64,000 nucleotides of DNA from an uncultured Bacilli bacterium (GTDB lineage Bacteria > Bacillota_I > Bacilli_A > RF39 > UBA660): contig CAKOON010000005.1 of NCBI GenBank assembly GCA_934098565.1, forward strand, positions 32,066-96,065. Reading direction: 5' to 3'. Made by a program: the position numbers and the translations under genes. This document shows, in pieces, positions 10,515 to 59,134 of this stretch (position 1 is the stretch's first letter; every line of letters starts with the position of its first letter). Under the pieces are notes generated by a model. It was not told where the DNA came from. It worked only from the letters and a program-made list of their open reading frames with translations, and ran no database searches.

Positions 10515-12551
10515 CTAAAGCTCCTTTTCTACTCTAGCAAAGTCTTCCATAGTCTTATGGGAATTATAAAATAAACCTGCTAAAATAATGTCTTTTGGAT
10601 TTATTTTGTCTAAATGATTTATCAAAGTAATCAAATTACGTTTCGTATTTTCAGTTGAAAAAGCTAAATTATCGATGATATAGGCATTTTCTTTGGAAAC
10701 ACTAAGAGCTTCGATTTTATTAACTATCTTGGAATAATCATCAAATTTCTTAGCTGACTCTAATTTAGGATTTTCTAAAGTATTTTGTTCTAAAATTTCC
10801 AAGGCTTCTTTAGATATATTACCTTCTAACTCATTAGTTAAGCTTTTATTTAATTTTGTTAAATCAATTTCTTTTTCCACTAACTCCTCAAGAACTTTTT
10901 GACTAAAAATATAACTATTATAAGTCAATATATTATTTTTTTCTTCGGTATATGGAATATTATACTCTTTGCAGAAATTTATTCTTTCTAAAATTAAAGG
11001 AATATTTTGGCTTAAAGCATTAACATTGCAATTTAAAAGATTAGTTTCTCGAGCTTCAATAATTAAATCTAAGTTACGTCTTAGAGCCTCAGGCTCTTGG
11101 CATAAAACTTTAAAGACAATCTTGCCATTTGAATTTTTAAGGCTTACTTTATAATTATTTAGAATATGTAGATTTTCTTGAAGTTTAGCATTATCAATAA
11201 GACTTAGAGATATACCGAATTTTTGTAATTCCATCGGACTTGGTTTATAGCCATTATCTGTTAAAGTCTTTAGATTAGCTAAATAATTATCAAGACCATT
11301 TTGATAAATAACTAACGAAATGTCATTTGAGTCGATATCTTCATTTTTTAAAGTATTTAAAATTTTTTGGCAATCAAAAGCGCTAGTGTCGAATGGCTTT
11401 ATTAAGTCGATATCGGTTTTAGCTTTTCCTAAGGCCAGCAAAGTTTCTTCTCTAAAATTAACAGAATCTTCAATTGGCGCAACTTGGTCTTCTAAAATCT
11501 TTGGGTTTTTTGTAGTTGCTGGTTCTTGGTCTTCTAAAGTAGCCGAAGTATCAACATCCTTAGCTGGAACGTCTTCTTTATCATTTTCAAAAAGACTTCT
11601 TAATTCTTCAAAAGAAATTGGTGTTTCATTCTCTAATTGTTCCTCAAAAGAAATTAAATCACGATTTTCTCCTTCTGATGCTTTCTCCTCTTCTTTAGAA
11701 GTACTAGTTTCTTCTTCTTTCTTGGATTCTTGGTCATTATTTACTTCATCTTCAGTTTTTTCTAAACCCGGAGAAATAGTGTTATCTTCAGTCTCTTTAT
11801 TCAATAAAGAAACAATACTATCTAAATCAACAAAGTCATCAGAGTTAGCAGGTTCATCGAAGTTAACAACGTCGCTCGAACTTGTATCTAAATCAGAAGT
11901 TTCCTCATTGGTCTTTTGACTAGCAAATTCATAATCTTTAAAGAAAGGAACCAATTCATCTTCAGGGAATAAGATTAATTTAGCGGTTTTATAAGCCTCT
12001 TTATCATCAAAATTAACTTTCTTTAAAATACTAATAACTTCATCCCTCGTTTTTTCTACTTGACTAGAAGTAGCAGCGGCAAGTAACGACCTTAATTCTG
12101 CTTGATTTTTTAAAGCATCTTCTAATTCTTGGCATAACTTAGAAATTGCAGCATTTGCATTAGAAAGGTTTTCATTTTCTTTAGTAATACCATTTTCTAA
12201 ATCAGCAATGTCGTTTTCTCTAATAGTAATTTGCAAAGGTAACTGATTAGTCAACTTATCTAAGTCATCTTTAATATTAATTTTTAGTTTTAAAACACTT
12301 GTAATTAAACTTAAATCAGTATCTTTTAGAGAAGCAAAAGCATCAGTTAACAACTTTTTTTCGGTTGCTAAGGTATCAATGTCGTTTTTTATGCTAGTAA
12401 TCCGTTCATTTTTAGAGGTAATACTAGCCTTAGCCTTGGCTACAATCTCTTCGTTTTTATTCTTTTTATTGTGAAGTTCACTTAAAATACTTGATTCTGG
12501 TTCAATTAAATTCTTTAATTTTTCTAATACATTTTGGTTATTATTCATCAC
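10515..12551 (-). CDS. Large coiled-coil, acidic protein with a C-terminal helical-repeat region
   Basis: 678 aa. The N-terminal roughly 200 aa are heptad-like, there is a central D/E/S/T-rich disordered stretch, and the C-terminus carries repeats like those in the downstream 95-aa ORF. Confidence 0.5.
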   Translation of the reverse strand: MMNNNQNVLEKLKNLIEPESSILSELHNKKNKNEEIVAKAKASITSKNERITSIKNDIDTLATEKKLLTDAFASLKDTDLSLITSVLKLKINIKDDLDKLTNQLPLQITIRENDIADLENGITKENENLSNANAAISKLCQELEDALKNQAELRSLLAAATSSQVEKTRDEVISILKKVNFDDKEAYKTAKLILFPEDELVPFFKDYEFASQKTNEETSDLDTSSSDVVNFDEPANSDDFVDLDSIVSLLNKETEDNTISPGLEKTEDEVNNDQESKKEEETSTSKEEEKASEGENRDLISFEEQLENETPISFEELRSLFENDKEDVPAKDVDTSATLEDQEPATTKNPKILEDQVAPIEDSVNFREETLLALGKAKTDIDLIKPFDTSAFDCQKILNTLKNEDIDSNDISLVIYQNGLDNYLANLKTLTDNGYKPSPMELQKFGISLSLIDNAKLQENLHILNNYKVSLKNSNGKIVFKVLCQEPEALRRNLDLIIEARETNLLNCNVNALSQNIPLILERINFCKEYNIPYTEEKNNILTYNSYIFSQKVLEELVEKEIDLTKLNKSLTNELEGNISKEALEILEQNTLENPKLESAKKFDDYSKIVNKIEALSVSKENAYIIDNLAFSTENTKRNLITLINHLDKINPKDIILAGLFYNSHKTMEDFARVEKEL

Positions 12552-14203: not shown

Positions 14204-14761
14204 TTACCTACTCATTAATAGCTTTAATGCTTCCTTAATTTGACTTTCTAATTCTTTAGTAGCGTCAACATTTGGCAAAATAGCTTTAATATCATTTTTC
14301 TTATAGCCTAAAGATTCTAAGACATTAACAAGTTCATCTAAGTCTTTGACAGCAAATAAGTCTTGATGATCTGCTAACTTGCCTTTTAAGTCTAAAATGA
14401 TTTGACGAGCTAATTTATCCCCTACTTTAGGAAACTTCGTTAAATAAACCAGATTTTCTCTTTCAATAGCCTCAATAACATCAGCCGTATTGCCCGTGGA
14501 AACCATTGGTAAAGCCATCTTTGGTCCTAAGCCTTTAACATTGATTAATCTTAAGAAAAGATTTTTTTCTTCCTTTTTTTTAAAGCCATACAAAGTATAT
14601 TCATCTTCCCTTATATAGTTATATAAATAGATTGTGTACTCTAAATTTTCACGATAAACATAAGGGTTACCAACGTAAATTTGGTATCCGATGCCATTAT
14701 TTTCAATAACAACATAGTTGGTACCGATTTCTTTTATAATTCCTGTTATATAGTTATACAT
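14204..14761 (-). CDS. ruvA: Holliday junction DNA helicase subunit RuvA
   Basis: MYNYITGIIKEIGTNYVVIENNGIGYQI is the classic RuvA N-terminus, and LINVKGLGPKMAL is the HhH motif. The start was moved from the track's 14803 to the ATG at 14761, because the promoter at 14785-14813 lies inside the longer ORF and AAAGGAAGG precedes 14761. Confidence 0.9.
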   Translation of the reverse strand: MYNYITGIIKEIGTNYVVIENNGIGYQIYVGNPYVYRENLEYTIYLYNYIREDEYTLYGFKKKEEKNLFLRLINVKGLGPKMALPMVSTGNTADVIEAIERENLVYLTKFPKVGDKLARQIILDLKGKLADHQDLFAVKDLDELVNVLESLGYKKNDIKAILPNVDATKELESQIKEALKLLMSR

Positions 14762-14784
14762 TTCAAACCTTCCTTTTCTTTCCC

Positions 14785-14813
14785 ATAGTACCAACCTACT
14801 CACTCTTTGTCAA
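14785..14813 (-). promoter_or_regulatory. Sigma-A-type promoter of the ruvA-HAD-ruvB operon
   Basis: On the minus strand: TTGACA (14813-14808), a 17-nt spacer, then TACTAT (14790-14785). Confidence 0.6.
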
Positions 14814-15053
14814 GATAAGATTAGAGTTTTTTTTCGGGTTTACTTAGTGGCATTTTCTTTGTTATTTACCCCTCTATATATAATATGTTAAGGATAGGTA
14901 TCGTTTTTTTTCAAAAATCCCAAACTTTTTAAAATTTTTTTTTGATTTTCTTTTATTTGTTTACTTAAAGAAAGATTTATAACTTAAAAAAACTGCATAT
15001 TTCTATACAGCTTACTAAAAAGAATTCAATTTTTTATCTTACATAATAATTTA

Positions 15054-15668
15054 TTATAAATATTGGTCTATATCATTTATGTATAAGCGTAGAATATCAT
15101 ATTGTTTTATATTTTTATTTTTATATCCTAATTCCCTCCTGATAGCTAAAATTAAATCTTCTATCTTAGGAGCATCATTTTGTAAAAAATATTTCGTATA
15201 TTCTTCTTTCGGCAAAGTACCTTTCTTTGTAGCACTGTTCATAGCGCTCATTTTAAAGTTAGACCAAGCCTTTAAAACGTTATCAGACGCATAAATTGTC
15301 ATGTATTTTTGTTGTTTTCTTAATTCTTCAGTTATATCTTTATTATCGTTAATTTCTGCATAAAGGACATTTTTTATTAACCAATCTAGAAATTCTATAT
15401 ATATTCTTTGTCTTTCATTTCTAATTTGATTTTTAATATTATATCTGTTCTCAAAATATTTACCTACTGGCACCCCAATAAATGTTAATGAACCGGTAAT
15501 AAGTGCTACCATAATAGCTGGATAATTATCACTTACATATTTAATATTTTTTATTATCAGTTGCCCCGTTTTTAGAAAGATATAAATTGTAAATATTATT
15601 AGCTCTAGTCCTAAAATGAAACGCAAGATATCCTGTAAAGAATTAAACATTTTTTTCTTACTATGCAT
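15054..15668 (-). CDS. Two-TM membrane protein with a soluble helical C-terminal domain (third gene of the Fic operon)
   Basis: 204 aa. It has hydrophobic helices ILRFILGLELIIFTIYIFL and AIMVALITGSLTFIGVPV. It starts 17 nt after the upstream stop. Confidence 0.6.
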   Translation of the reverse strand: MHSKKKMFNSLQDILRFILGLELIIFTIYIFLKTGQLIIKNIKYVSDNYPAIMVALITGSLTFIGVPVGKYFENRYNIKNQIRNERQRIYIEFLDWLIKNVLYAEINDNKDITEELRKQQKYMTIYASDNVLKAWSNFKMSAMNSATKKGTLPKEEYTKYFLQNDAPKIEDLILAIRRELGYKNKNIKQYDILRLYINDIDQYL

Positions 15669-15685
15669 AATATCACCTTAATCAT

Positions 15686-16927
15686 TTAATCATTAATCTT
15701 ATTAATGTCTATTAACCCGGAATTATTTACAATATATTTTACTATGGTGGAATTGGATACTTTTCCTTGTAATACCATTTCATATAGCGTTAGTAACGAT
15801 TTTGTATCAATAATTAAGGTCTCATTCTTTATAGCTAAATCAATTTGCATTTTATTAATATCATCGCGTAGTGTTATATCTTTGGTTCTTTCATAATTCA
15901 TTATTAGAATTTTTTTGATTTGTTCAGTTTTATTTAGTTCTTGTAAATTGTCCAAATACTTAGAATAATGCACTTCCAATTGAGAAATATGCTCATATTT
16001 AACATTGGATGTTACACCTTTTATTTCACCAATAAAAGTTATGCCGTCTTTAACAAATAGAAAGTCTTCTTTCTTTTCATCTTTAAAATCTTTTAAAGAT
16101 ATATTAAATATATATTCTAATATCTCAAAAACAACTTCTACTAAAGCATCTGAATTATTATATAGTACTGACTTGTAACGCAAGTTTTGTTGCAATTTTT
16201 TACTAGCATTGTCTATTATTTCTTTTTGAAGCTTTATTTGTTCTTTAGCCTGCTCAATGTTATTGCTTTGAATAATATCATCATTAAAATTATATCTATA
16301 AAGCCAATCAGGATACTCTGTTTCTTTTTCTATTAAGCCAATTTCCCTTAAATAATCAAATAGAATACTTATTTTTTCGCTCTTAATTATATCTAAAGTA
16401 GTAATAATTAAATTATCACTTTTAATTGTTGTAACTTTATTACTTTCATCGGAACTTGTTAAAGTTACATAGCCATCGTTATTTATGTAAAACGAAGCTG
16501 GTATTAAATTTGAGTTTATCTTAGTTGAACTATTTTCATATATTATTTCTAAACCTTTAATCGGAATTAATTGTTCCAGTATTTTAGTGAATAAGGGTAA
16601 CATATTCTTTAACTGTAATCTATGATTACTAGACCCCCAACTCCAATGATAATTTAAATTTTGAGGTAAACAAATAATATTTATTGACTTGTTACTATTT
16701 TCTATCATTCGATTAATACTTTTAAAATCTGCAGTCATTTTAGTATTTACATCTGGGGCTGAATAGCTACCTGTTGCACTTTCCCACATATTCTCTGAAT
16801 TCAGGTTAAAAATATTTATGTTATAATTGTCTAAAGACTTTAATTTATTGAAGTCATTACTCTCAATTTTTTTATTATAATCAGCATATTCTAAGGGATT
16901 ATAGGTTATTAATTGTATTTTTGACAT
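15686..16927 (-). CDS. Unknown protein with a PD-(D/E)xK-like C-terminal module (second gene of the Fic operon)
   Basis: 413 aa. A central coiled coil is EQAKEQIKLQKEIIDNASKKLQQNL. The C-terminus LVEVVFEILEYI...KKEDFLFVKDGITFIGEIKGV gives the E ... D ... ExK order of restriction-endonuclease-fold nucleases. The N-terminal half is unassigned. Confidence 0.45.
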   Translation of the reverse strand: MSKIQLITYNPLEYADYNKKIESNDFNKLKSLDNYNINIFNLNSENMWESATGSYSAPDVNTKMTADFKSINRMIENSNKSINIICLPQNLNYHWSWGSSNHRLQLKNMLPLFTKILEQLIPIKGLEIIYENSSTKINSNLIPASFYINNDGYVTLTSSDESNKVTTIKSDNLIITTLDIIKSEKISILFDYLREIGLIEKETEYPDWLYRYNFNDDIIQSNNIEQAKEQIKLQKEIIDNASKKLQQNLRYKSVLYNNSDALVEVVFEILEYIFNISLKDFKDEKKEDFLFVKDGITFIGEIKGVTSNVKYEHISQLEVHYSKYLDNLQELNKTEQIKKILIMNYERTKDITLRDDINKMQIDLAIKNETLIIDTKSLLTLYEMVLQGKVSNSTIVKYIVNNSGLIDINKIND

Positions 16928-16939
16928 TTCTCATCACTC

Positions 16940-17866
16940 CTACAGTAGTTCTAAATATTTATTAAGTATTTCAATCTCTAAATCCGTAACCAATTTAATA
17001 AAGTCAGTATAATTTCCCGTTGTATGGGCTTTATCTAGGGCTTCGTAATATTTTAATCTTGCTTCTTTCTTTACAATAACTGGTAAATAGCCACTATGCA
17101 TTAAATCTAAATTCATAAGTAGTCTAGAGGTTCTGCCATTGCCATCAATAAAGGGGTGAATTTTCACGAGTTCTCCATGTAATAAAGCAGCCCTAATTAT
17201 TGGATGATATTTATCCCAAGTCTGATAATTAACAATAAGTTTTTCCATCAGTTCTGGTAATTTTAAGTAGTCAGGTGGAATATGAACGGCACCTTTAATA
17301 GTAACATTTTCTCTTCGATAGCGACCAGCATTTTCGTTATCAATACCCTTTAGTATTAATTCATGAATACTTTTTATATTCCACTCTGTAATTGGATTTT
17401 CTTCTTTAACTAAGTCATCTAAAAATAAAATAGCCTGTTCATGATTTATAGCTTCTAAATGTTCTTTAATTGATTTGCCACCAACAGTAATCCCCTCTAA
17501 AACCACTTGTGTCTCTCTTAAAGTTAAGGTATTACCCTCAATACCGTTACTATTATAGATCCATTCTAAATTGATGGTTTCTTTTAATGATTGTAATGTT
17601 TTTTTAGATATAGGTCTTTTACTATCTAATTTTCTTTTTAAATTATCTACTTCATCAAAATAATCATCGTCTAAGTTAATTATAAAATTCTCTTCATCTG
17701 GTTTAATTATTCTTTTATCAACTGGTTTACTAGCAGAGGCTGGAATATTCCAATTACTGCCAACTTTAATGGCTCCTTCAATTCTTCCTTCTTGAAGTAA
17801 TTGCCTTATTCTTCTCTCACTAATGCCCCAGTTTTTTTCTGTTTCTTTAGTAGTCATGTATTTCAT
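16940..17866 (-). CDS. HTH-Fic family protein (auto-inhibited Fic AMPylase type)
   Basis: It has the N-terminal HTH WGISERRIRQLLQEGRI, the inhibitory motif SNGIEGN ((S/T)xxxE(G/N)), and the catalytic HPFIDGNGRTSR (HxFx(D/E)GNGRxxR). The Shine-Dalgarno AGAGGTGA lies 5 nt before the ATG. Confidence 0.9.
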   Translation of the reverse strand: MKYMTTKETEKNWGISERRIRQLLQEGRIEGAIKVGSNWNIPASASKPVDKRIIKPDEENFIINLDDDYFDEVDNLKRKLDSKRPISKKTLQSLKETINLEWIYNSNGIEGNTLTLRETQVVLEGITVGGKSIKEHLEAINHEQAILFLDDLVKEENPITEWNIKSIHELILKGIDNENAGRYRRENVTIKGAVHIPPDYLKLPELMEKLIVNYQTWDKYHPIIRAALLHGELVKIHPFIDGNGRTSRLLMNLDLMHSGYLPVIVKKEARLKYYEALDKAHTTGNYTDFIKLVTDLEIEILNKYLELL

Positions 17867-17884
17867 ATTTCACCTCTTGTAATT

Positions 17885-17913
17885 ATTATACCGAGTTCGG
17901 TAGTATATGTCAA
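17885..17913 (-). promoter_or_regulatory. Consensus sigma-A promoter of the Fic operon
   Basis: On the minus strand: TTGACA (17913-17908), a 17-nt spacer, then TATAAT (17890-17885), about 20 nt upstream of the Fic start. Confidence 0.7.
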
Positions 17914-18244
17914 CGATTATGTTCTAAGATTAATATGTTTTTCTACCGTCTTATAGCAAAAAACTTTAAAAGTTCTTAATCTATCATTCATCATTTGCAT
18001 AAAAATAGTCACTAGTAGAACTTTATCTCTGCTGCAAGATGTAAAATGCTTATAAAATGTATACTCTTTTCAGACCAGTATTTATAGGTATTTTTAAATT
18101 TTGCCAATACCATAACGAAATTTAAAGTCTACATATTTTCTTTAAAAACACTTAAAAATTCTTGTACTTAAACCTTTTTTCAAGTAAGATACTATATACT
18201 TAAAACATAATAAGTCTTTAGAAACTTTCATTATTTATATATAA

Positions 18245-18270
18245 CAAAAAAAGAACTCATTAAGAGTCCC
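18245..18270 (-). terminator. Rho-independent terminator closing the Tad-like operon
   Basis: The minus-strand RNA is GGGACUC UUAAU GAGUUC followed by U7, immediately after the stop at 18274. Confidence 0.65.
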
Positions 18271-23765: not shown

Positions 23766-26700
23766 CTATTTTAAATAACTATCTATCTTACAAGATGAGT
23801 ATTCACTATTTGAAGAAATATCAGCTAGGAATTGTGATTTATATTCACGAGATTCTTTACTTATAGAACTTGCACTATAGTCACCAAATCCTAAATCGAT
23901 TATTTCTTGATTTTTGTTATATGTTTTAATTGCATTCATACAAGCTGAATTCATAGTAATAGAGTATTCTAAGTACTTTTCATCATCAGCATAAATACCA
24001 TCACCAACATCTTCAATTTGTTTAATGATATCACTTAAATTTTGTTTAGAACCATCAGTAGTATTTTCAACGCCAGAAGTTTTACCACTCCAGTTATAGC
24101 CTTTAGATGAATTACCATTAGGGAATAAGTCATAGTTAGATACAGTCTTTGTATAGAATTGTAAAGTACCATTATTACCAATTAAAGCAGAATTATTATT
24201 AGTAGTTATAGTTGTTTGAAGAGCACTATCTTCACCATATAATTTAATACCTTGGCAATGAGTTTTACATACATTGTTATAAGTTTCATTGCTGGCTGGG
24301 ACTTTAGTTGCTTCTACATAGCTACAACAAGTATCACCATCTGCTAATAGTTTATTAATACAAGCATTAGCTTTATTTTCGTATTCTTCATATAACTTGT
24401 CATCTTTATTAGTATGAAGAAATAAATCTAAGTAAGATTTTTCATCATCATTTTGACAATCAGATGATTTTAAGATATCTTCACAACTTGGAATAACAGT
24501 ATCTGGTTCTGCTTTAACTTCGTAGTTACATACATATTGGTTAGCAAGAAGTCCACTAACATAACCATTATTATCAACAATACGTCCTTGGGAATAAGTA
24601 TTATTGTAGTACTGACCTAAGTTATTAATTTCAATTTGATAACTGTATTTACCTGGCATTGTCGATAAAGCAATTGGATATACTAAACCTTCAGCTTTTT
24701 TCTCTGAACCATCAACTGTTACGATGTCAGTATTTTTAATAGCTTCATCACCAGTATCAACTAGGATTGGAGCTTCAGTTGTATCATTAAAGTTATTAGG
24801 ATTTGTTACATAGATACCTTTATTAGAATATGTCCAATATGGTTGACTAGATTTATAATAAATAAATTTTTGGGAACCTTGACCATTAATACTTGAGACA
24901 ACATCGTTTACTTTATTTAAGAAACCAGAAGTAGTTCCGCCGACTTTACCAGTAGCCCAAGTAGCGATATTAGATAGTAAACTTTGTAGGTTGAAACCAG
25001 CAATTGACACACCTGGATTACCATATCTTGAAATAGTAGCAACACGTTTAACATTACGGTATTTAACATTTTGACCATCTTGAACATGGGCAATTAACTT
25101 AGTAACAATTGAAGTCTCTAAACCTTTGAAGTCTCCTCTAGCAATAGATGAAGTAGCATCTTTAAAGACATTAGAAGTTCCTTTGTAACTTAAGTCATAA
25201 GCAATTGAACCTGGTATATAAGTATTAATTGAACCAGAAACATCATCATCTGATGATAAACCGAATAAATTGCATAGCTTTTCATTATTACTACAAATAT
25301 TATTAGTAAATTCTTGAACAGCTGGAATTTCTTGAAGATTACTAAATAGTTGCCCAAGGACTTCTTTGTTATTATTAAAGAACTGAGCTACATCGTTTGA
25401 ATTATTACCACTAAGAAGTGCAGCGGCGATGCTACCAAGCATACCATCAGATGTTACACAGGTTCCATCCATAATGTTATTCCAGTCTTGGATTTTATTA
25501 ATATCAACGTCTTTATAACAGTAATATGTTGAAACATCGGGACTTTCTTCTTTATTAATTGCTTTTAAAGTAATACTATTAGTTGTTTTGTTGTTCTTAT
25601 TAGCAATGAATTCTAATAAGTTATTATTTTTATAGCCGTAAGTGAATGTTATCTCTGGGTCCATTTCATATTCTTTGTCCCAAATTGTACAAGCATTCAT
25701 GTTTGTTGCTTTTTCTAAAAGGTCTGTACGATAATTTTCATATTCGTCTTTATATTTACGCATTTGTTCTCTAATACTTGCTATATAGGCATAGTATGGA
25801 CTAAATGTTCCTCTTAAGTAATAATAACCATCGAAAGCATAATCTAAAACATTAGAGATATCTTTTTCAGTTGAAGATAATATATCTTTGGCATCACCAA
25901 CAGCCTGGAAGATTTCATTTACAGTTGAAAGAATACTTGTGATATTATCTAAATTGCTGCTAAAACTTGAAGAATTAAGTTTTTTAATACTTTTTTTGGT
26001 TGGGTTTTTAAGCGATTCAGTAGCATTTTGGATGGCGTTAAATGTCACTTGAACATTACCAATAGCTTTGGTTGTAGTGTTAGCACTCTTTTTAAATGAC
26101 TCGACACTTTTTCCTAAATTTTTATAATTGAAGTAAATACCAAAATACATGGTTTTCATTATATAACTATCCGGATCCATTATCCAAATTTTAATTTGAT
26201 TTCCAGTGGTCTCCGCATTTACATGTTTAACTGTGTCTTTAACAAATTCTGAGCTTAGCTTAGTTTCATTAGTAGAAGCATCAGCAAATTTAAAGACATC
26301 TGTGTCATAGCTATAAGGTTGAGCTTTTTGGATATTAAAGATTTTTACAGTTGATTGAGTAGCATCATTTACTCTAGTTACGCCTTCTTTTACAGCCGTT
26401 GAAGCTTGAGCATAAATTTGGCAAACGTCAGCACCAAGAACTCGTCCTAAATTACATAAGAAAGTTATAAAAGTTTTTCCAATAGCAGATACTGCGGCCG
26501 AGCCAAGACTTTTTAGGCTTGTTTTAGCTAGATTACCGACTTCCTGCGCTATTGTATCTTTGATACTATCAATAGATTTACCGATTTTATCTTTATATTG
26601 TTCATATGAATCGCCAAATGATGTTTCTGCTGATTGCTTGAAGGCGTTAGTAATTGTATCAGAATTTAAATCACCACTAAGAAATTCTCCAGCAATGTAA

Positions 26701-29700
26701 GTTGCAAAACTTTCCATACTATTAGTAAAATTGCCTTGGATTCTCCAGAATTCTTCACCAGTAGAAACACCAAGAGCTTCACTAATAATTTTATCTCTAA
26801 TTGTTGCTAATGATGATGACAGCTGGGTTTTAAATTTTAACATAATATCGGTAGTATCAATTGGTGAAACATCACTTTGAACACGTTCATCAACTGGCTC
26901 TGTAACTATAGCTTGTCTAAATGAAGAATACTGATTGATATAGTTATTATAAGCGTCTAACATTTTTTGCTTTGTATTAGCAGCTTCACTTAAATATTTA
27001 GTATTATCAATAGAAGTTGTAACACAAGTTCTTTGACCGGCAACACCAACCGTTGCATGATAAACATTATCTAAATTTGTGGAAATATATCGGCCAGCAT
27101 AAGTAACTCCTAGGTTACCTGGCATTTTAAAGGCATAATCTTCTTTACAAACAATTTTACAATAGTCATTAGCAGTTTGAACAGTATATGAATTACCATT
27201 TGGGTCAGTAGCTTCTACCCCATTCTCACCAATTATACATTTCTCCCAGTTAACGGTAAACGAACTAGTAATGGAATCCACTAGACCAGAAACCGAACCT
27301 AAATTAGTCGCATTCATAACTTGATCTTTAATAGAACCTAAGTAATTTAGAACACCGTTTAACCCATCACCGGTTGAAGAAATTACAGTTTGAATGGTAC
27401 TTGAAAATGATAAGATATTAGTCATTATTTGGTCCATACCAGTGGCTTGAGCTAAATAATCAACTAAGTAAGATGAAGCTTTGGCAATATCTTTTAAACT
27501 AGAAGCAGAAGAGGCACTATCAACAGAGTTTTTAAGAGCTTCTAATAAATTTTTGGTATCAGTAGATATCTTAGTATTACTAGCAGCTTCATAAATTTCA
27601 GCCCACTCTTTTTTTACGTTATCATAGCCATTATCCGCAACGTTAACCATTGTTTCTAAGAATAGTTTAGATAAAACTTTGAAGTTATCTTGAGCAGTTC
27701 CATTAAAGTTAACATTGTTAAGGGCTTGACTTAAAAATCTAGCGGTCTGGTTTTGATTATTAGTATATAACGAATCTAAAAATTTCAATTCATTTTTGAT
27801 ATTCTTAGTAATATTTACTTTATCAGCAAAGTTATAAAGTAAAGCACTTGAGTTCTTTAATCCACTTATAGATAAGCCATTTAGGCCAACATCCTTAAGT
27901 AATTGAACCATAGAAGTAGCATTACCAACTAAAGTTCTTAAATCCCCAATACTATTAATACCACTCATAACAGAATTAAATAAAGTTCCAGATTGCGTTC
28001 CTTCAATTAAATAGAAAACCGTTTCTGAATTAGTACAAGGAAGAGCAAAAGTTGCACGACAAGTGTTTTCTTTTTTCTTACCCATATCAATTGGAATTTC
28101 TTCTACTTTTTCAGCAGCCCCATTATTGAATGCTAAGAATTTCTGATAATTTTTAGTACCGACTCCAGTATGAGTTTTAGTTGAAGTTAAAATCAAAATA
28201 TTAGTTATGGACTTTTTAGAAACATAATTAGTAGTAACTCTAAGTTTAATAGAATCACTTTCGCCTAAAGATTGAGAAACATTCTTTTTAGTTACTTTAA
28301 ATTTAGCAACAGTGTAGCCGCTAGAATCTCTAGTCCAGTCGCTTACAGTTGTAATGTCGGAGTCATCAATTGTTATAGTTGTCCCACCATCAGTAACAGC
28401 AGTAATCTTAAAGTTTTCTTTACTAGTTGCTTCCGTTATTAAGCGGTCATCATCACTTTTTAATTTAACGCTAAATGTTACTTCAAAACCGGTATTTGAC
28501 TCAATTGTCTTTGGAGTTTCATACTCTACTTTGAATTCTACTTCGTTCTCCGCTTTAGTAATAGGTTCATTGCCATTAGCAAACGCTGTTACATCATTGT
28601 AAACTTTTTGAAGCATAGAATCGGCTTTAGTAAATTGTTTTTTGTTATAGCCATCGAAAGCTGCTCTTAATTCCGGACAATCGGCATAGTTACATGCTTT
28701 TCTAGGATTAGTAACAGAAATACCACCATTAACAAAGATTAACATTCTAGCAACGTTATTTAAAACGTAATCAGCATAATCTTCAGCTCTAGTACCACTT
28801 GTTCCAGAGGCACTTTTTATTTCATTATAATTTGTTTCATCAGCATACCAGTTAGAATATAAACGGTATAATCCACGCCATAGTTTAGAATCTTCTTTAA
28901 TTATGGTATTTGGCTGGGAAACATATTTAACACCGGTTGATTCTGGTCCAGTAGCACCTGGATCAATACAGAAAGCTGTAATTGGCGTTGTTTTATCTTG
29001 GCCATCGCAAGTATAATATGTTTTGTAAACGTTATAATAGTTATGGGCTCCTACTGGTGATTTGAATAAAGAATCATTTTTATAACTTCTTTCATCTCTG
29101 ACTATAAATTGAGTGCAAGCATTTTTACCATAAGAACTACTGCTATTAGCTTGACTAATAACTTCACCAGTTTCAGTATCTACAGTGGTTGCAGGTAAAG
29201 GTTCATTTAACTTTTCACAAGCATTTCTAGTAGTTGCTGATTTAGAAGTATCAGTTTGACGATACTTACTAGATTCAGCAGCTTCACTAGCTTTCATCCA
29301 CTTATAAGTAGTAACATTATTTATTTTTACTTGATAACAACTTTCAATATCATTATTGCTGCTACTTTGATCATTATTGCTTGAGCAAAAACTGCTTTCT
29401 ACAGTTTGATTACGGCCACAGCTGCCAGTAGCAGTTTTATAATTTCCGGAAGGAAGTTTGCAACAAACATTTTTATTAGAATCACCATTATCGCTTAATT
29501 TTACTGTTATATAAATCAATGCCGTATCAACTTTATTATTATAACTGTATTTAACTTGAGCAGAAATGCTATCTAACTTATTAGGCATTTTCTTAAGTTG
29601 GTCAGCAGTAACTTTAACTCTCAAAGTTATATCTGAAACATTCAAACCAGAGCCACTATTTTCGTAGCTAGTTTTATATGTTGCAATTTTATTTTCATCA

Positions 29701-29921
29701 TACGTAATTGTAATATTAGATTCAAGAGTTATGGCATTCTTATTAACGCCAAGGTCTTTGGCAATTAAATTTTTAATACCAATTCCTTGATTAATATACC
29801 CATCATTTTGAACATAAAGAGTTTGGCCAAGGGTTTTAGCCTCTGGGCTTAACATTTTAAAGTTAAAAGCAAAAATGCTTAATAATAAAATTAATATTAC
29901 TTTTTTAATACTACTTTTCAT
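23766..29921 (-). CDS. Giant secreted protein (2051 aa), Cys-paired, with a long helical centre; unknown family
   Basis: It has the signal peptide MKSSIKKVILILLLSIFAFNF. I counted about 34 Cys, mostly in close pairs, plus a long central S/N/L-rich helical-looking region. There is no LPXTG and no C-terminal TM helix. Its start overlaps the upstream stop (TAATG). Confidence 0.8.
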   Translation of the reverse strand: MKSSIKKVILILLLSIFAFNFKMLSPEAKTLGQTLYVQNDGYINQGIGIKNLIAKDLGVNKNAITLESNITITYDENKIATYKTSYENSGSGLNVSDITLRVKVTADQLKKMPNKLDSISAQVKYSYNNKVDTALIYITVKLSDNGDSNKNVCCKLPSGNYKTATGSCGRNQTVESSFCSSNNDQSSSNNDIESCYQVKINNVTTYKWMKASEAAESSKYRQTDTSKSATTRNACEKLNEPLPATTVDTETGEVISQANSSSSYGKNACTQFIVRDERSYKNDSLFKSPVGAHNYYNVYKTYYTCDGQDKTTPITAFCIDPGATGPESTGVKYVSQPNTIIKEDSKLWRGLYRLYSNWYADETNYNEIKSASGTSGTRAEDYADYVLNNVARMLIFVNGGISVTNPRKACNYADCPELRAAFDGYNKKQFTKADSMLQKVYNDVTAFANGNEPITKAENEVEFKVEYETPKTIESNTGFEVTFSVKLKSDDDRLITEATSKENFKITAVTDGGTTITIDDSDITTVSDWTRDSSGYTVAKFKVTKKNVSQSLGESDSIKLRVTTNYVSKKSITNILILTSTKTHTGVGTKNYQKFLAFNNGAAEKVEEIPIDMGKKKENTCRATFALPCTNSETVFYLIEGTQSGTLFNSVMSGINSIGDLRTLVGNATSMVQLLKDVGLNGLSISGLKNSSALLYNFADKVNITKNIKNELKFLDSLYTNNQNQTARFLSQALNNVNFNGTAQDNFKVLSKLFLETMVNVADNGYDNVKKEWAEIYEAASNTKISTDTKNLLEALKNSVDSASSASSLKDIAKASSYLVDYLAQATGMDQIMTNILSFSSTIQTVISSTGDGLNGVLNYLGSIKDQVMNATNLGSVSGLVDSITSSFTVNWEKCIIGENGVEATDPNGNSYTVQTANDYCKIVCKEDYAFKMPGNLGVTYAGRYISTNLDNVYHATVGVAGQRTCVTTSIDNTKYLSEAANTKQKMLDAYNNYINQYSSFRQAIVTEPVDERVQSDVSPIDTTDIMLKFKTQLSSSLATIRDKIISEALGVSTGEEFWRIQGNFTNSMESFATYIAGEFLSGDLNSDTITNAFKQSAETSFGDSYEQYKDKIGKSIDSIKDTIAQEVGNLAKTSLKSLGSAAVSAIGKTFITFLCNLGRVLGADVCQIYAQASTAVKEGVTRVNDATQSTVKIFNIQKAQPYSYDTDVFKFADASTNETKLSSEFVKDTVKHVNAETTGNQIKIWIMDPDSYIMKTMYFGIYFNYKNLGKSVESFKKSANTTTKAIGNVQVTFNAIQNATESLKNPTKKSIKKLNSSSFSSNLDNITSILSTVNEIFQAVGDAKDILSSTEKDISNVLDYAFDGYYYLRGTFSPYYAYIASIREQMRKYKDEYENYRTDLLEKATNMNACTIWDKEYEMDPEITFTYGYKNNNLLEFIANKNNKTTNSITLKAINKEESPDVSTYYCYKDVDINKIQDWNNIMDGTCVTSDGMLGSIAAALLSGNNSNDVAQFFNNNKEVLGQLFSNLQEIPAVQEFTNNICSNNEKLCNLFGLSSDDDVSGSINTYIPGSIAYDLSYKGTSNVFKDATSSIARGDFKGLETSIVTKLIAHVQDGQNVKYRNVKRVATISRYGNPGVSIAGFNLQSLLSNIATWATGKVGGTTSGFLNKVNDVVSSINGQGSQKFIYYKSSQPYWTYSNKGIYVTNPNNFNDTTEAPILVDTGDEAIKNTDIVTVDGSEKKAEGLVYPIALSTMPGKYSYQIEINNLGQYYNNTYSQGRIVDNNGYVSGLLANQYVCNYEVKAEPDTVIPSCEDILKSSDCQNDDEKSYLDLFLHTNKDDKLYEEYENKANACINKLLADGDTCCSYVEATKVPASNETYNNVCKTHCQGIKLYGEDSALQTTITTNNNSALIGNNGTLQFYTKTVSNYDLFPNGNSSKGYNWSGKTSGVENTTDGSKQNLSDIIKQIEDVGDGIYADDEKYLEYSITMNSACMNAIKTYNKNQEIIDLGFGDYSASSISKESREYKSQFLADISSNSEYSSCKIDSYLK

Positions 29922-58207: not shown

Positions 58208-59134
58208 TTAAATATTATTAAAGTCTAATCCTTCTTCCAACGCAATATCTTTAAACTCAATTTTAAACTTTTCAATATCTTTTCTTAAGGAATCTTCATA
58301 AACACTTTTCGTATTGCAAATAGCTTCATAGATATGTTTTAATCTTACTTCTTTGGTATTATCAAACAAAGCATAACTAAAAGCATTAGAAATAATAGCT
58401 AAACAGATATCTGGGTATCTTGAGGAAATCTCATAGATTCTTTTATATTCATCAGTCATATCAACAATAAAAGCAAAGATTTTTTCTTTAATAAAGTCAG
58501 TATAAGGCATAACAAGATGCATTTGTTTTTCAATTTTGGGTAAAGTTCCCATTAAGATTTTAATAGTTGTTTCTCTATCAGCTTCTTTAACATCAACTTT
58601 TTGAAATCTTCTTAAGAAGGCTCTATCACGAATAATATATTGTTCATATTCTTCAGTAGTAGTGGCTCCTATCATCTTGATTTCCCCACGGTCAAGGCCA
58701 GCTTTAAAAATATTGGCTAAATCCATACCGGATTCGCTATTATTGCCTTTAATAAGCAAATGGGTTTCATCGATAAAGACAATGGTTTTTTCTCTTTTAG
58801 CTAATTCTTTTACTAAGACATCTACCCTTGTCTCCTTTTGACCAGCAATCTCATACTCACCGATAATCGAAGAAGCATTAAGTTTAAATAAGTCATAACC
58901 GAATAAGGCGTTAGGTACCATGTTATTTTTAATACGGTAAGCAAGTCCCTCAACGATAGCCGTTTTACCAATACCAGCTTTGCCAACTAATAAAGGCGAC
59001 TTTTCAGGGGTTAAAAGAATTAAAATCATCTGTTTAATTTCTTCTTCTCTACCGATGGCCGGATCCGTTATATAATCACGTTCGACTAAATTTTCTGCAT
59101 ATCTTTCTAAAAAACTTATATTTTTTTCTTCCAT
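58208..59134 (-). CDS. Stand-alone AAA+ ATPase resembling the D1 module of ClpA/B/C
   Basis: [54 protein letters not shown] and [28 protein letters not shown] are present. It is only 308 aa, with no N-domain, middle domain or D2. Confidence 0.75.

Follow-up and report, generated by a model that had tools for sequence, protein, structure and literature searches.

SoFic-type class II Fic proteins have been reported as single-gene anti-phage or abortive-infection defences that act by AMPylation (PMC12249575; PMC11514479), and according to a 2026 preprint SoFic targets EF-Tu. The anticodon nuclease PrrC is, in one account, kept silent by its restriction–modification (R-M) partner in the hsd operon (PMC2610378), and the P2/P4 hotspots of phages and satellites hold defence genes (Rousset et al., 2022; PMC9122126). 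Here, we analyzed a 64,000-nucleotide (nt) stretch of contig CAKOON010000005.1 from a Hadza gut metagenome (hereafter, the window) and describe a minus-strand cassette of three genes that shares features with each of these systems. An earlier reading of the window, made from the letters alone (the sequence-only reading), had proposed that the cassette is one abortive-infection or toxin-type module. Our analysis suggests that it is probably a mosaic of three separately mobile genes of defence or mobile-element type, which are co-transcribed from the promoter of the Fic gene and form no obligate three-part machine, and that its second gene is a candidate new stand-alone nuclease defence gene. 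The three open reading frames (ORFs), the gaps of 12 nt between genes 1 and 2 and 17 nt between genes 2 and 3, and the promoter TTGACA-17-TATAAT at 17913–17885 were placed exactly by the sequence-only reading, and the promoter proved to be conserved. The features of the cassette are as follows.

16940–17866, minus strand: gene 1, a helix-turn-helix (HTH) plus class II FICD-like Fic protein of 308 amino acids (aa), identified from Pfam Fic, PADLOC and FICD structures
15686–16927, minus strand: gene 2, 413 aa, a member of an uncatalogued family, defined by homologue clusters without any library match
15054–15668, minus strand: gene 3, a 204-aa membrane protein and separate cargo block, identified from hydrophobicity, an AlphaFold2 (AF2) model and nucleotide homology
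17885–17913, minus strand: sigma-70-type promoter, with TTGACA at 17913–17908, a 17-nt spacer and TATAAT at 17890–17885
17889–17902, no strand assigned: palindrome TACCG-N4-CGGTA, a predicted operator, in the promoter spacer and overlapping the -10 box

Gene 1 resembles SoFic and FICD in its Fic core, HPFxDGNGRxxR, and in its N-terminal inhibitory motif, (S/T)xxxE(G/N). It differs from SoFic in having an N-terminal excisionase-type HTH and in lacking the C-terminal winged-helix domain of that protein, and the solved SoFic of S. oneidensis aligns to it only around the motif (E ~1e-5). The C-terminal domain of gene 2 matches FokI and Nt.BspD6I in structure and shares with them the D...(D/E)xK arrangement and the linkage to a separate N-terminal module. 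However, gene 2 has no detectable sequence similarity to FokI or other type IIS enzymes, its N-terminal module is an amidotransferase-like alpha/beta fold whereas that of FokI consists of winged-helix DNA-recognition domains, and it has no partner methyltransferase. The closest folds to the N-terminal module are HisH, Pdx2 and PhzE, from which it departs in lacking a conserved nucleophile cysteine and in reaching TM-scores of only 0.4–0.5.

Like Shedu (SduA), gene 2 encodes a single polypeptide of ~400 aa in which a C-terminal PD-(D/E)xK domain follows an N-terminal domain that is variable or regulatory, and occurs patchily in defence islands. It is not a Shedu member: no consistent match to DUF4263 or to any PADLOC model was found in 51 members of the gene 2 family, and no Shedu structure was among its top Foldseek matches. 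As with PrrC/EcoprrI, about 9 of the 57 species-level loci have the gene 2 homologue placed between hsdS and hsdR; in contrast, the gene in the window lies outside an hsd operon, and gene 2 has neither an ABC-ATPase nor an anticodon-nuclease domain. That an R-M complex might regulate gene 2 homologues in the manner of a PrrC-like guard is speculation by analogy. Finally, the wider arrangement recalls the P2/P4 hotspots in that a conserved backbone (HTH_36, a 32-aa ORF, a serine recombinase and Fic) offers a fixed slot for interchangeable, unrelated genes of defence type. It differs in that the carriers are small serine-recombinase elements of uncultured gut Bacilli and Tenericutes-like bacteria, that their cargo is candidate defence only, and that the window holds cargo and no element.

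Results

Gene 2 represents an uncatalogued family with a predicted FokI-like domain

Gene 2 matched nothing in Pfam-A 2025, NCBIfam 20, PHROGs v4, PADLOC-DB 2.0 or the sequences of the Protein Data Bank (PDB), the last searched by phmmer and hmmsearch with the single protein and two profiles. Among 51 diverse family members, no Pfam or PADLOC family was matched consistently at E ≤ 0.1. Clustering of the homologues at 90% identity gave 805 clusters, and at 50% identity (E ≤ 1e-3) it gave 1,142; the best 150 of the 1,142 representatives were mostly 400–430 aa long, with a few shorter fragments and no extra fused domain. By these comparisons, gene 2 is the founder of a large and uniform family of ~410-aa proteins outside the libraries used. 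A literature search, which was not exhaustive, returned no described family with the architecture of gene 2 and no Fic plus OLD or Fic plus nuclease system, and a fold search of BFVD with gene 2 returned nothing at E ≤ 1e-3.

The AF2 model of gene 2, with a predicted local distance difference test score (pLDDT) of 84, consists of an N-terminal alpha/beta domain (~1–200), a long helix (215–255) and a C-terminal alpha/beta domain. The parts map as follows.

16328–16927, minus strand: N-terminal alpha/beta domain, residues ~1–200 (AF2 block-mean pLDDT about 79–96; Foldseek)
Residues about 215–255 of gene 2, upstream of the nuclease domain: coiled-coil linker (helix in the AF2 model)
15686–16162, minus strand: C-terminal PD-(D/E)xK (FokI-like) domain, residues 256–413 plus stop (Foldseek and conservation)
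16066–16064, 16027–16025 and 16021–16019, minus strand: predicted catalytic residues D288, E301 and K303, respectively (invariance)

The sequence-only reading had likened the C-terminus to nucleases of the restriction-endonuclease fold from an E / D / ExK order of residues and had called for a Foldseek search with the 413-aa model. This search found a nuclease fold: the C-terminal domain matched FokI (2fok_A/B; probability 0.99, 183–185 aligned columns, root-mean-square deviation 4.9–6.5) and Nt.BspD6I (E 3e-3), the modest E-values being due to the use of the full-length model as the query. D288, E301 and K303, together with D283, G300 and G304, were invariant in 51 sequences from at least eight phyla, and Q316 (98%) and H320 (96%) were nearly so. 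In the model, D288, E301 and K303 sit on the strands 288–293 and 296–303. The first acidic residue of the proposed order, E271, varies across the wide family, so that only the D...ExK part of that order stands. Together, the model and the conservation support a FokI-like PD-(D/E)xK domain of the restriction-endonuclease fold.

When compared with the PDB by Foldseek, the N-terminal domain matched the glutaminase domains of PhzE, Pdx2 and HisH with E-values of 1e-4 to ~1e-2, with TM-scores of 0.4–0.5 on single-domain targets. We considered whether gene 2 is a class I glutamine amidotransferase and rejected this, since position 85, the candidate nucleophile cysteine, is C, I, V or F among homologues, there is no catalytic triad and no glutamine amidotransferase family of Pfam is matched; the likeness is one of fold only. 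Five polar residues of the domain (Q5, D33, D67, N90 and K107) are conserved, so it carries a conserved site.

Gene 2 homologues occur mostly alone and in defence contexts

A scan with one genome per species placed gene 2 homologues at 57 loci, which belong to Bacillota, Tenericutes-like Bacilli, Spirochaetota, Elusimicrobiaceae, Cloacimonadota, Deferribacteraceae, Campylobacteraceae and Methanobrevibacter. The homologue was solo in most of these loci. A gene 3 homologue was present in none of the 57, and a Fic gene lay within ~4.5 kb in about five (L011, L025, L027, L042 and L045), never immediately upstream; at L030, the gene was preceded only by a 75-aa HTH-like ORF. The commonest context was HsdM-HsdS-(gene 2 homologue)-HsdR: nine loci (L011, L015, L023, L025, L031, L035, L039, L042 and L045) have HsdS as the upstream neighbour or close to it, and seven of these nine also have HsdR downstream. 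Other immediate neighbours were Abi_alpha, AbiH, DpnII, an AAA_13 ATPase and KilA-N, and at L004 the homologue followed a Bro-N protein. A clade 65% identical to gene 2 was also solo; its island contains a PLD-helicase-DUF3427 protein and NUDIX, and variants of the island carry a Schlafen/AlbA_2-domain protein (L092) or an Abi_2 gene (L091). Homologues of 35–40% identity were further present in 17 IMG/VR contigs (L100–L116), typically right before terS-terL-portal and after a small ORF resembling a transcriptional regulator. In the window, gene 2 lies between a Tad-like locus and ruvA, outside any hsd operon.

Several homologues (L010, L011, L028, L033, L039, L042 and L057) are tightly adjoined by proteins of 185–244 aa with one or two N-terminal transmembrane helices, which have no detectable homology to one another. 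We asked whether these are diverged forms of gene 3; an hmmsearch with the gene 3 profile was negative and hhalign probabilities were at most 2.5%, so this was rejected. Unannotated neighbours also recur, at L025:10766–12274, L089:6404–7912, L011:4324–4890 and L015:1804–2184. They include a 502-aa protein after hsdR without a Pfam match, another 502-aa protein whose variant in L092 carries SLFN_AlbA_2/HATPase_c_4, and multi-transmembrane proteins of 126–188 aa between hsdM and hsdS.

These contexts bear on the possibility that gene 2 is a solitary restriction enzyme, of type IV (modification-dependent) or type IIS-like, that would kill invading DNA directly and not through abortive infection, recognition of DNA or of a DNA modification falling to the N-terminal domain and cleavage close by to the FokI-like domain. 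A FokI-like catalytic domain linked to a separate, conserved N-terminal domain fits this explanation, as do the want of a consistently adjacent methyltransferase, carriage by prophages, and positions inside or beside type I R-M operons; Mrr and McrBC likewise adjoin hsd in E. coli K-12. However, the amidotransferase/flavodoxin-like fold is no known reader of DNA or modified bases, the 51 members gave no Pfam match to Mrr_cat, SRA, EVE or similar, and the data do not separate direct restriction from abortive infection. We regard a solitary restriction enzyme as rather unlikely.

Gene 1 is a class II Fic protein with an added HTH

Gene 1 matched Pfam Fic with an E-value of 3.7e-22 (79 bits; cut-off 24). 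It contains the catalytic motif HPFIDGNGRTSR, which fits HxFx(D/E)GNGRxxR and aligned identically with FICD, and N-terminal to the Fic core the inhibitory motif SNGIEGN, which HMMER aligned to TVAIEGN of FICD. The nearest solved structures were those of metazoan FICD (3.9e-38, residues 51–294). PADLOC returned SoFic (8.1e-35, spanning positions 32–262 of the 361 in the profile) and PDC-S04 (1.5e-34), and the NCBIfam SoFic equivalog scored 36 bits against a cut-off of 550. The N-terminus matched HTH/excisionase families of PHROG at 6e-7 to 1e-6 and Pfam HTH_17 at an E-value of 0.0025, under the cut-off; some homologues have PF12728 as a precomputed assignment. Both Fic motifs named by the sequence-only reading are thus present and backed by Pfam, and the HTH that it placed at the N-terminus is weak in Pfam and recovered in PHROG. 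Because of the FICD alignment, the two motifs and the HTH/excisionase matches, gene 1 is classed on sequence as a class II, intramolecularly inhibited Fic with an added N-terminal HTH, that is, a new architecture within a known Fic type.

A class I Fic toxin–antitoxin pair of the VbhT/VbhA type was also considered. It was rejected on the inhibitory motif, which lies inside gene 1, and on the score of the VbhT equivalog (16.5 bits against a cut-off of 800). There was no small antitoxin gene beside gene 1, and the 360 nt upstream lack, on that strand, any ORF of 50 aa or more.

The cassette combines two homology blocks that are element cargo elsewhere

At the nucleotide level, the cassette consists of two sharp-ended homology blocks. 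Block A extends from the promoter through gene 2 (window 17914–15684) and matches L071, L075 and L086 at 78–80%; block B is the gene 3 ORF alone (window 15671–15050) and matches L061 at 79%. Window positions 17914–16909 also match L093, a Fic-OLD element, at 81%, and this homology ends 18 nt into gene 2. The Fic–gene 2 and Fic–OLD junctions (window 16905–16940; L093:4925–4965) share the spacer, the ribosome-binding site and the first ~8 codons, a similarity that suggests cassette exchange via recombination at the translation-initiation region.

In the commonest variant of the 308-aa Fic protein (Fic-308), of 82% identity and found in 745 index blocks, the next gene encodes an OLD-family nuclease at the same 12-nt distance. 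Other Fic-308 variants, in the range of 82–84%, are followed at a longer gap by an AAA_14/DUF4143 ATPase, and some have no cargo gene before a serine recombinase. The closest relatives of gene 2 (74–77% identity) keep the Fic-308–gene 2 pair as element cargo without gene 3, in the order ImmA-like regulator, HTH_36, 32-aa ORF, serine recombinase, Fic, gene 2 and then a host LysM gene. More generally, the elements of this family in uncultured gut Bacilli (L071–L076, L086–L087, L093–L099 and L061–L070) have a backbone of an ImmA/HTH_3 regulator, small ORFs, HTH_36, a 30–32-aa ORF and a serine recombinase of 524–528 aa. Their variable cargo end abuts the host LysM-domain gene and was seen to hold Fic plus gene 2, Fic plus an OLD nuclease, or Bro-N plus gene 3.

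Gene 3 has hydrophobic helices at about 13–33 and 50–70, and its AF2 model (pLDDT 83) is all-helical, with a cytoplasmic helical bundle after two N-terminal transmembrane helices, in agreement with the two transmembrane helices and helical domain described earlier. The Foldseek search that had been proposed for this 204-aa model was unproductive, with no fold match in the PDB (best E 2.1), and Pfam, NCBIfam, PHROGs and PADLOC gave sub-threshold matches only (E ≥ 0.012). All 81 homologues are at least 44% identical. Those of 60–76% identity are the last cargo gene of serine-recombinase elements, after Bro-N and without Fic or gene 2. Gene 3 is an orphan and a separate cargo block.

Sister strains have lost genes 1 and 2 stepwise

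Contigs encoding an identical Tad-like 262-aa protein were taken as the sister-strain set. They show three states: the full cassette (L078 and L079), a 5'-truncated Fic gene beside intact genes 2 and 3 (L085), and gene 3 alone (L080–L084). In L085, the 5' ~610 nt of Fic are lost, the deletion having fused the promoter region to Fic at nucleotide ~605 by way of the microhomology AATTAC(A/C)AGA. In L080–L084, 42 nt from inside Fic run directly into the final ~60 nt of gene 2, and the promoter and palindrome are retained with gene 3 directly behind. The deletions can be located by comparing L085:2400–2950 and L080:5790–6090 with L078:5790–8400.

L080–L084 are deletion scars, because they keep the promoter, the 42-nt Fic piece and the last ~60 nt of gene 2; these same remnants rule out our alternative that strains without Fic and gene 2 are pre-insertion 'empty sites'. 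The loss was stepwise and microhomology-mediated, removing first the 5' ~610 nt of Fic and then the remainder of Fic with nearly all of gene 2. These strains thus tolerate gene 2 in the absence of Fic, and gene 3 when both other genes are missing. Relative to the window, L085 is 87% identical in its Fic remnant, 84% in the promoter region and 99.5% in gene 2, and L079 has an identical Fic and a gene 2 that is 95% identical. These identities indicate mosaicism of alleles within the cassette, by recombination with other copies.

The exchangeable slot behind Fic-308 raises the possibility of a two-gene system, in which a constant HTH-Fic sensor/regulator (or co-toxin) would work with an exchangeable effector (gene 2, an OLD nuclease or an AAA_14/DUF4143 ATPase), controlled for example by AMPylation or transcriptional repression, and gene 3 would be an unrelated passenger. 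Fic-308 is strongly conserved (82–84% aa identity) while the gene behind it varies, the Fic–gene 2 and Fic–OLD junctions have a common spacer, ribosome-binding site and first codons, and the closest clade invariably has Fic next to gene 2, with near translational coupling. In L011, L025, L042 and L045, a type I R-M operon also contains both a Fic gene and a gene 2 homologue, although this co-occurrence is explicable if both are common passengers there. Against such a system, gene 2 stands alone at most species-level loci, as it does in the 65%-identical clade, Fic-308 is found without a cargo gene behind it, L085 has an intact gene 2 and a truncated Fic, and single-gene action has been reported for OLD nucleases as well as for SoFic-type Fic proteins. 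A two-gene system appears to us unlikely.

It is quite improbable that the genes instead serve a mobile element, with Fic as an addiction or maintenance toxin, gene 2 as a phage or element DNA-processing nuclease and the window copy as a decaying remnant. The relatives of both blocks are indeed serine-recombinase element cargo, homologues of gene 2 stand typically right before terS-terL-portal in the 17 viral contigs, and the window copy has no recombinase and is undergoing deletion in sister strains. Yet most gene 2 homologues are in non-phage contexts (type I R-M operons and Abi-rich islands), gene 2 is missing from most elements with the same backbone and so is not a core element function, and the region before terS is a common site of accessory genes in temperate phages.

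We give hardly any credence to a single module of abortive-infection or toxin type in which the Fic enzyme, the nuclease and the membrane protein act as one integrated system: for all its single promoter, tight spacing and terminators at both ends, the trio is confined to the Tad-ruvA locus of this species (the window strain, L078 and L079), other loci show every pairwise and single combination, gene 3 forms a homology block of its own, the transmembrane neighbours of gene 2 homologues are not homologous to gene 3, and sister strains keep gene 3 alone under the promoter. The co-conservation expected of such a module therefore does not hold, each gene being found without the others, an outcome that the sequence-only reading had itself named as fatal to its proposal. 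What survives of the module proposed by the sequence-only reading is that the genes are of defence or mobile-element type by context, gene 1 matching, over part of the profile, models of a listed anti-phage type.

Promoter, terminators and surroundings of the cassette

The cassette promoter was the sole 12/12 consensus match in the region. Promoter-like sites there numbered 21 against 25.5 expected, which is no excess over chance. An identical promoter lies 5' of the Fic-308 gene in aligned, unrelated contigs, and 5' of gene 3 in a deletion allele; the promoter is thus credible because it is conserved across contigs and not because of site counts.

The perfect palindrome TACCG-N4-CGGTA has a single occurrence in the window (expected 0.01). 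Each of the 36 fetched loci with the cassette promoter carries it once at the conserved position; they comprise 31 with the Fic-308 gene or a remnant and the five deletion alleles (L080–L084), in which it is upstream of gene 3. In the palindrome-bearing loci (L071–L076, L078–L087, L093–L099 and L117–L128), it lies ~10–25 nt 5' of the Fic start, whatever gene comes next. One extra, unrelated match was seen in L039. The serine-recombinase elements have a second, imperfect copy, TACCGATAACGGAA, immediately upstream of the -35 box.

Two hairpins lie at the ends of the cassette.

18252–18270, minus strand: terminator-like hairpin 3' of the upstream Tad-like gene (consensus terminator scan)
About 14986–15013, minus strand: terminator-like hairpin and U-run 3' of gene 3 (centroid -9.7 kcal/mol, z -2.58 against shuffles)

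The first, at 18270–18252, would insulate the cassette promoter from upstream transcription. The second is too AT-rich for the consensus terminator scan and was found by folding against shuffled sequences. Given the promoter, the tight gaps and the hairpins at both ends, the three genes are plausibly one transcription unit.

The cassette is flanked on one side by the Tad-like pilus locus and on the other by ruvA, a 5'-nucleotidase-family gene (Pfam NT5C) and ruvB. The GC content is 24–27% over genes 2 and 3 (14600–17000) versus 30–34% in the ruvAB and Tad-like flanks. A repeat search of the flanks found no direct or inverted repeats bracketing the cassette; no recombinase or integrase adjoins it, and the rest of the window contains neither a second Fic gene nor a recombinase. 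The earlier statement that no integrase or flanking repeat is visible is accordingly true of the window; elsewhere, both blocks have close relatives that serine-recombinase elements carry as cargo. The other 308-aa ORF of the window (58208–59134) appears by eye to be AAA+ ATPase-like, with the Walker A motif GKAGIGKT. Two further ORFs have no Pfam family in the contig annotation: an acidic, coiled-coil-rich ORF of 678 aa downstream of ruvB (10515–12551) and an ORF of 2,051 aa at the far end of the Tad-like locus (23766–29921).

Discussion

We favour the mosaic reading, in which block A would be a conserved HTH-Fic, a short conserved ribosome-binding spacer and a swappable second gene (gene 2 here, the OLD nuclease elsewhere), a combination that elsewhere appears as the cargo of small serine-recombinase integrative elements. 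Block B would be the gene 3 ORF, which elsewhere appears after Bro-N in the same kind of element. From the gene structure, folds, conservation, modularity, contexts and deletions observed, we infer the following activities and a possible anti-phage role. The N-terminal HTH of the Fic protein probably represses the promoter through TACCG-N4-CGGTA. Gene 1, as an AMP-transferase of the SoFic/FICD type, would, once de-repressed, AMPylate a host protein and halt growth. Gene 2 may be an autonomous DNA nuclease, with its FokI-like domain held inactive until the N-terminal domain senses a trigger. Double-strand cleavage by FokI needs two catalytic domains together, and the coiled coil of gene 2 would then pair two such domains. 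The position between hsdS and hsdR might mean that gene 2 backs up, or is controlled by, the type I restriction complexes of those genomes. Gene 3 would be an independent membrane protein, possibly acting in exclusion or abortive infection.

Several points weigh against this reading. The anti-phage role rests on guilt by association, and the place of gene 2 homologues beside phage terminase genes could point to a function on the phage side. The FokI match is structural only, with a Foldseek E-value of ~0.02 on the full-length model, and an hhalign comparison of the gene 2 profile with a sequence of the FokI cleavage domain gave a probability of 0.15, which was uninformative. The fold match of the N-terminal domain is weak (TM-scores of 0.4–0.5) and says nothing on a ligand. 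The sister-strain deletions show dispensability, which is compatible with any accessory gene. Lastly, wherever gene 2 is at least 74% identical, Fic is adjacent, with a 12–13-nt spacer or a one-base overlap; because the pair is always adjacent there, a functional Fic–nuclease pairing is possible in the clade closest to the window.

The mosaic reading can be widened, although we hold the wider claim, taken as a whole, to be doubtful. Gene 2 would then found a widespread family of single-gene immune nucleases, ranging over Bacillota, Tenericutes-like Bacilli, Spirochaetota, Elusimicrobiota, Cloacimonadota, Deferribacterota, Campylobacterota and a methanogen, in which a dead amidotransferase-like domain senses infection and triggers FokI-like dimeric cleavage. 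The members embedded in R-M operons would act as guards that fire when the restriction complex is disabled, and 'Fic plus exchangeable effector' would be an architecture of its own, with the Fic slot carried on serine-recombinase elements of gut bacteria.

The chief products of this analysis are the gene 2 family and the slot on serine-recombinase elements in which a constant Fic gene is followed by an exchangeable downstream gene. The cassette illustrates how an 'operon' with close spacing and a strong promoter may be a mosaic of recent origin, with the same Fic promoter and predicted operator preceding different genes in different elements. Together with the stepwise deletion of two genes, this is a caution for the operon-based prediction of multi-gene defence systems. 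Candidate defence genes of this general kind are common. Stand-alone nucleases equipped with a sensor domain recur in bacterial immunity, and FokI-type domains have practical value as programmable cleavage modules. The gene 2 family occupies textbook defence contexts across many phyla, including abundant uncultured Bacilli of the human gut. If it is an immune nuclease, gene 2 would add a new sensor fold and a tractable case of a gene between hsdS and hsdR.

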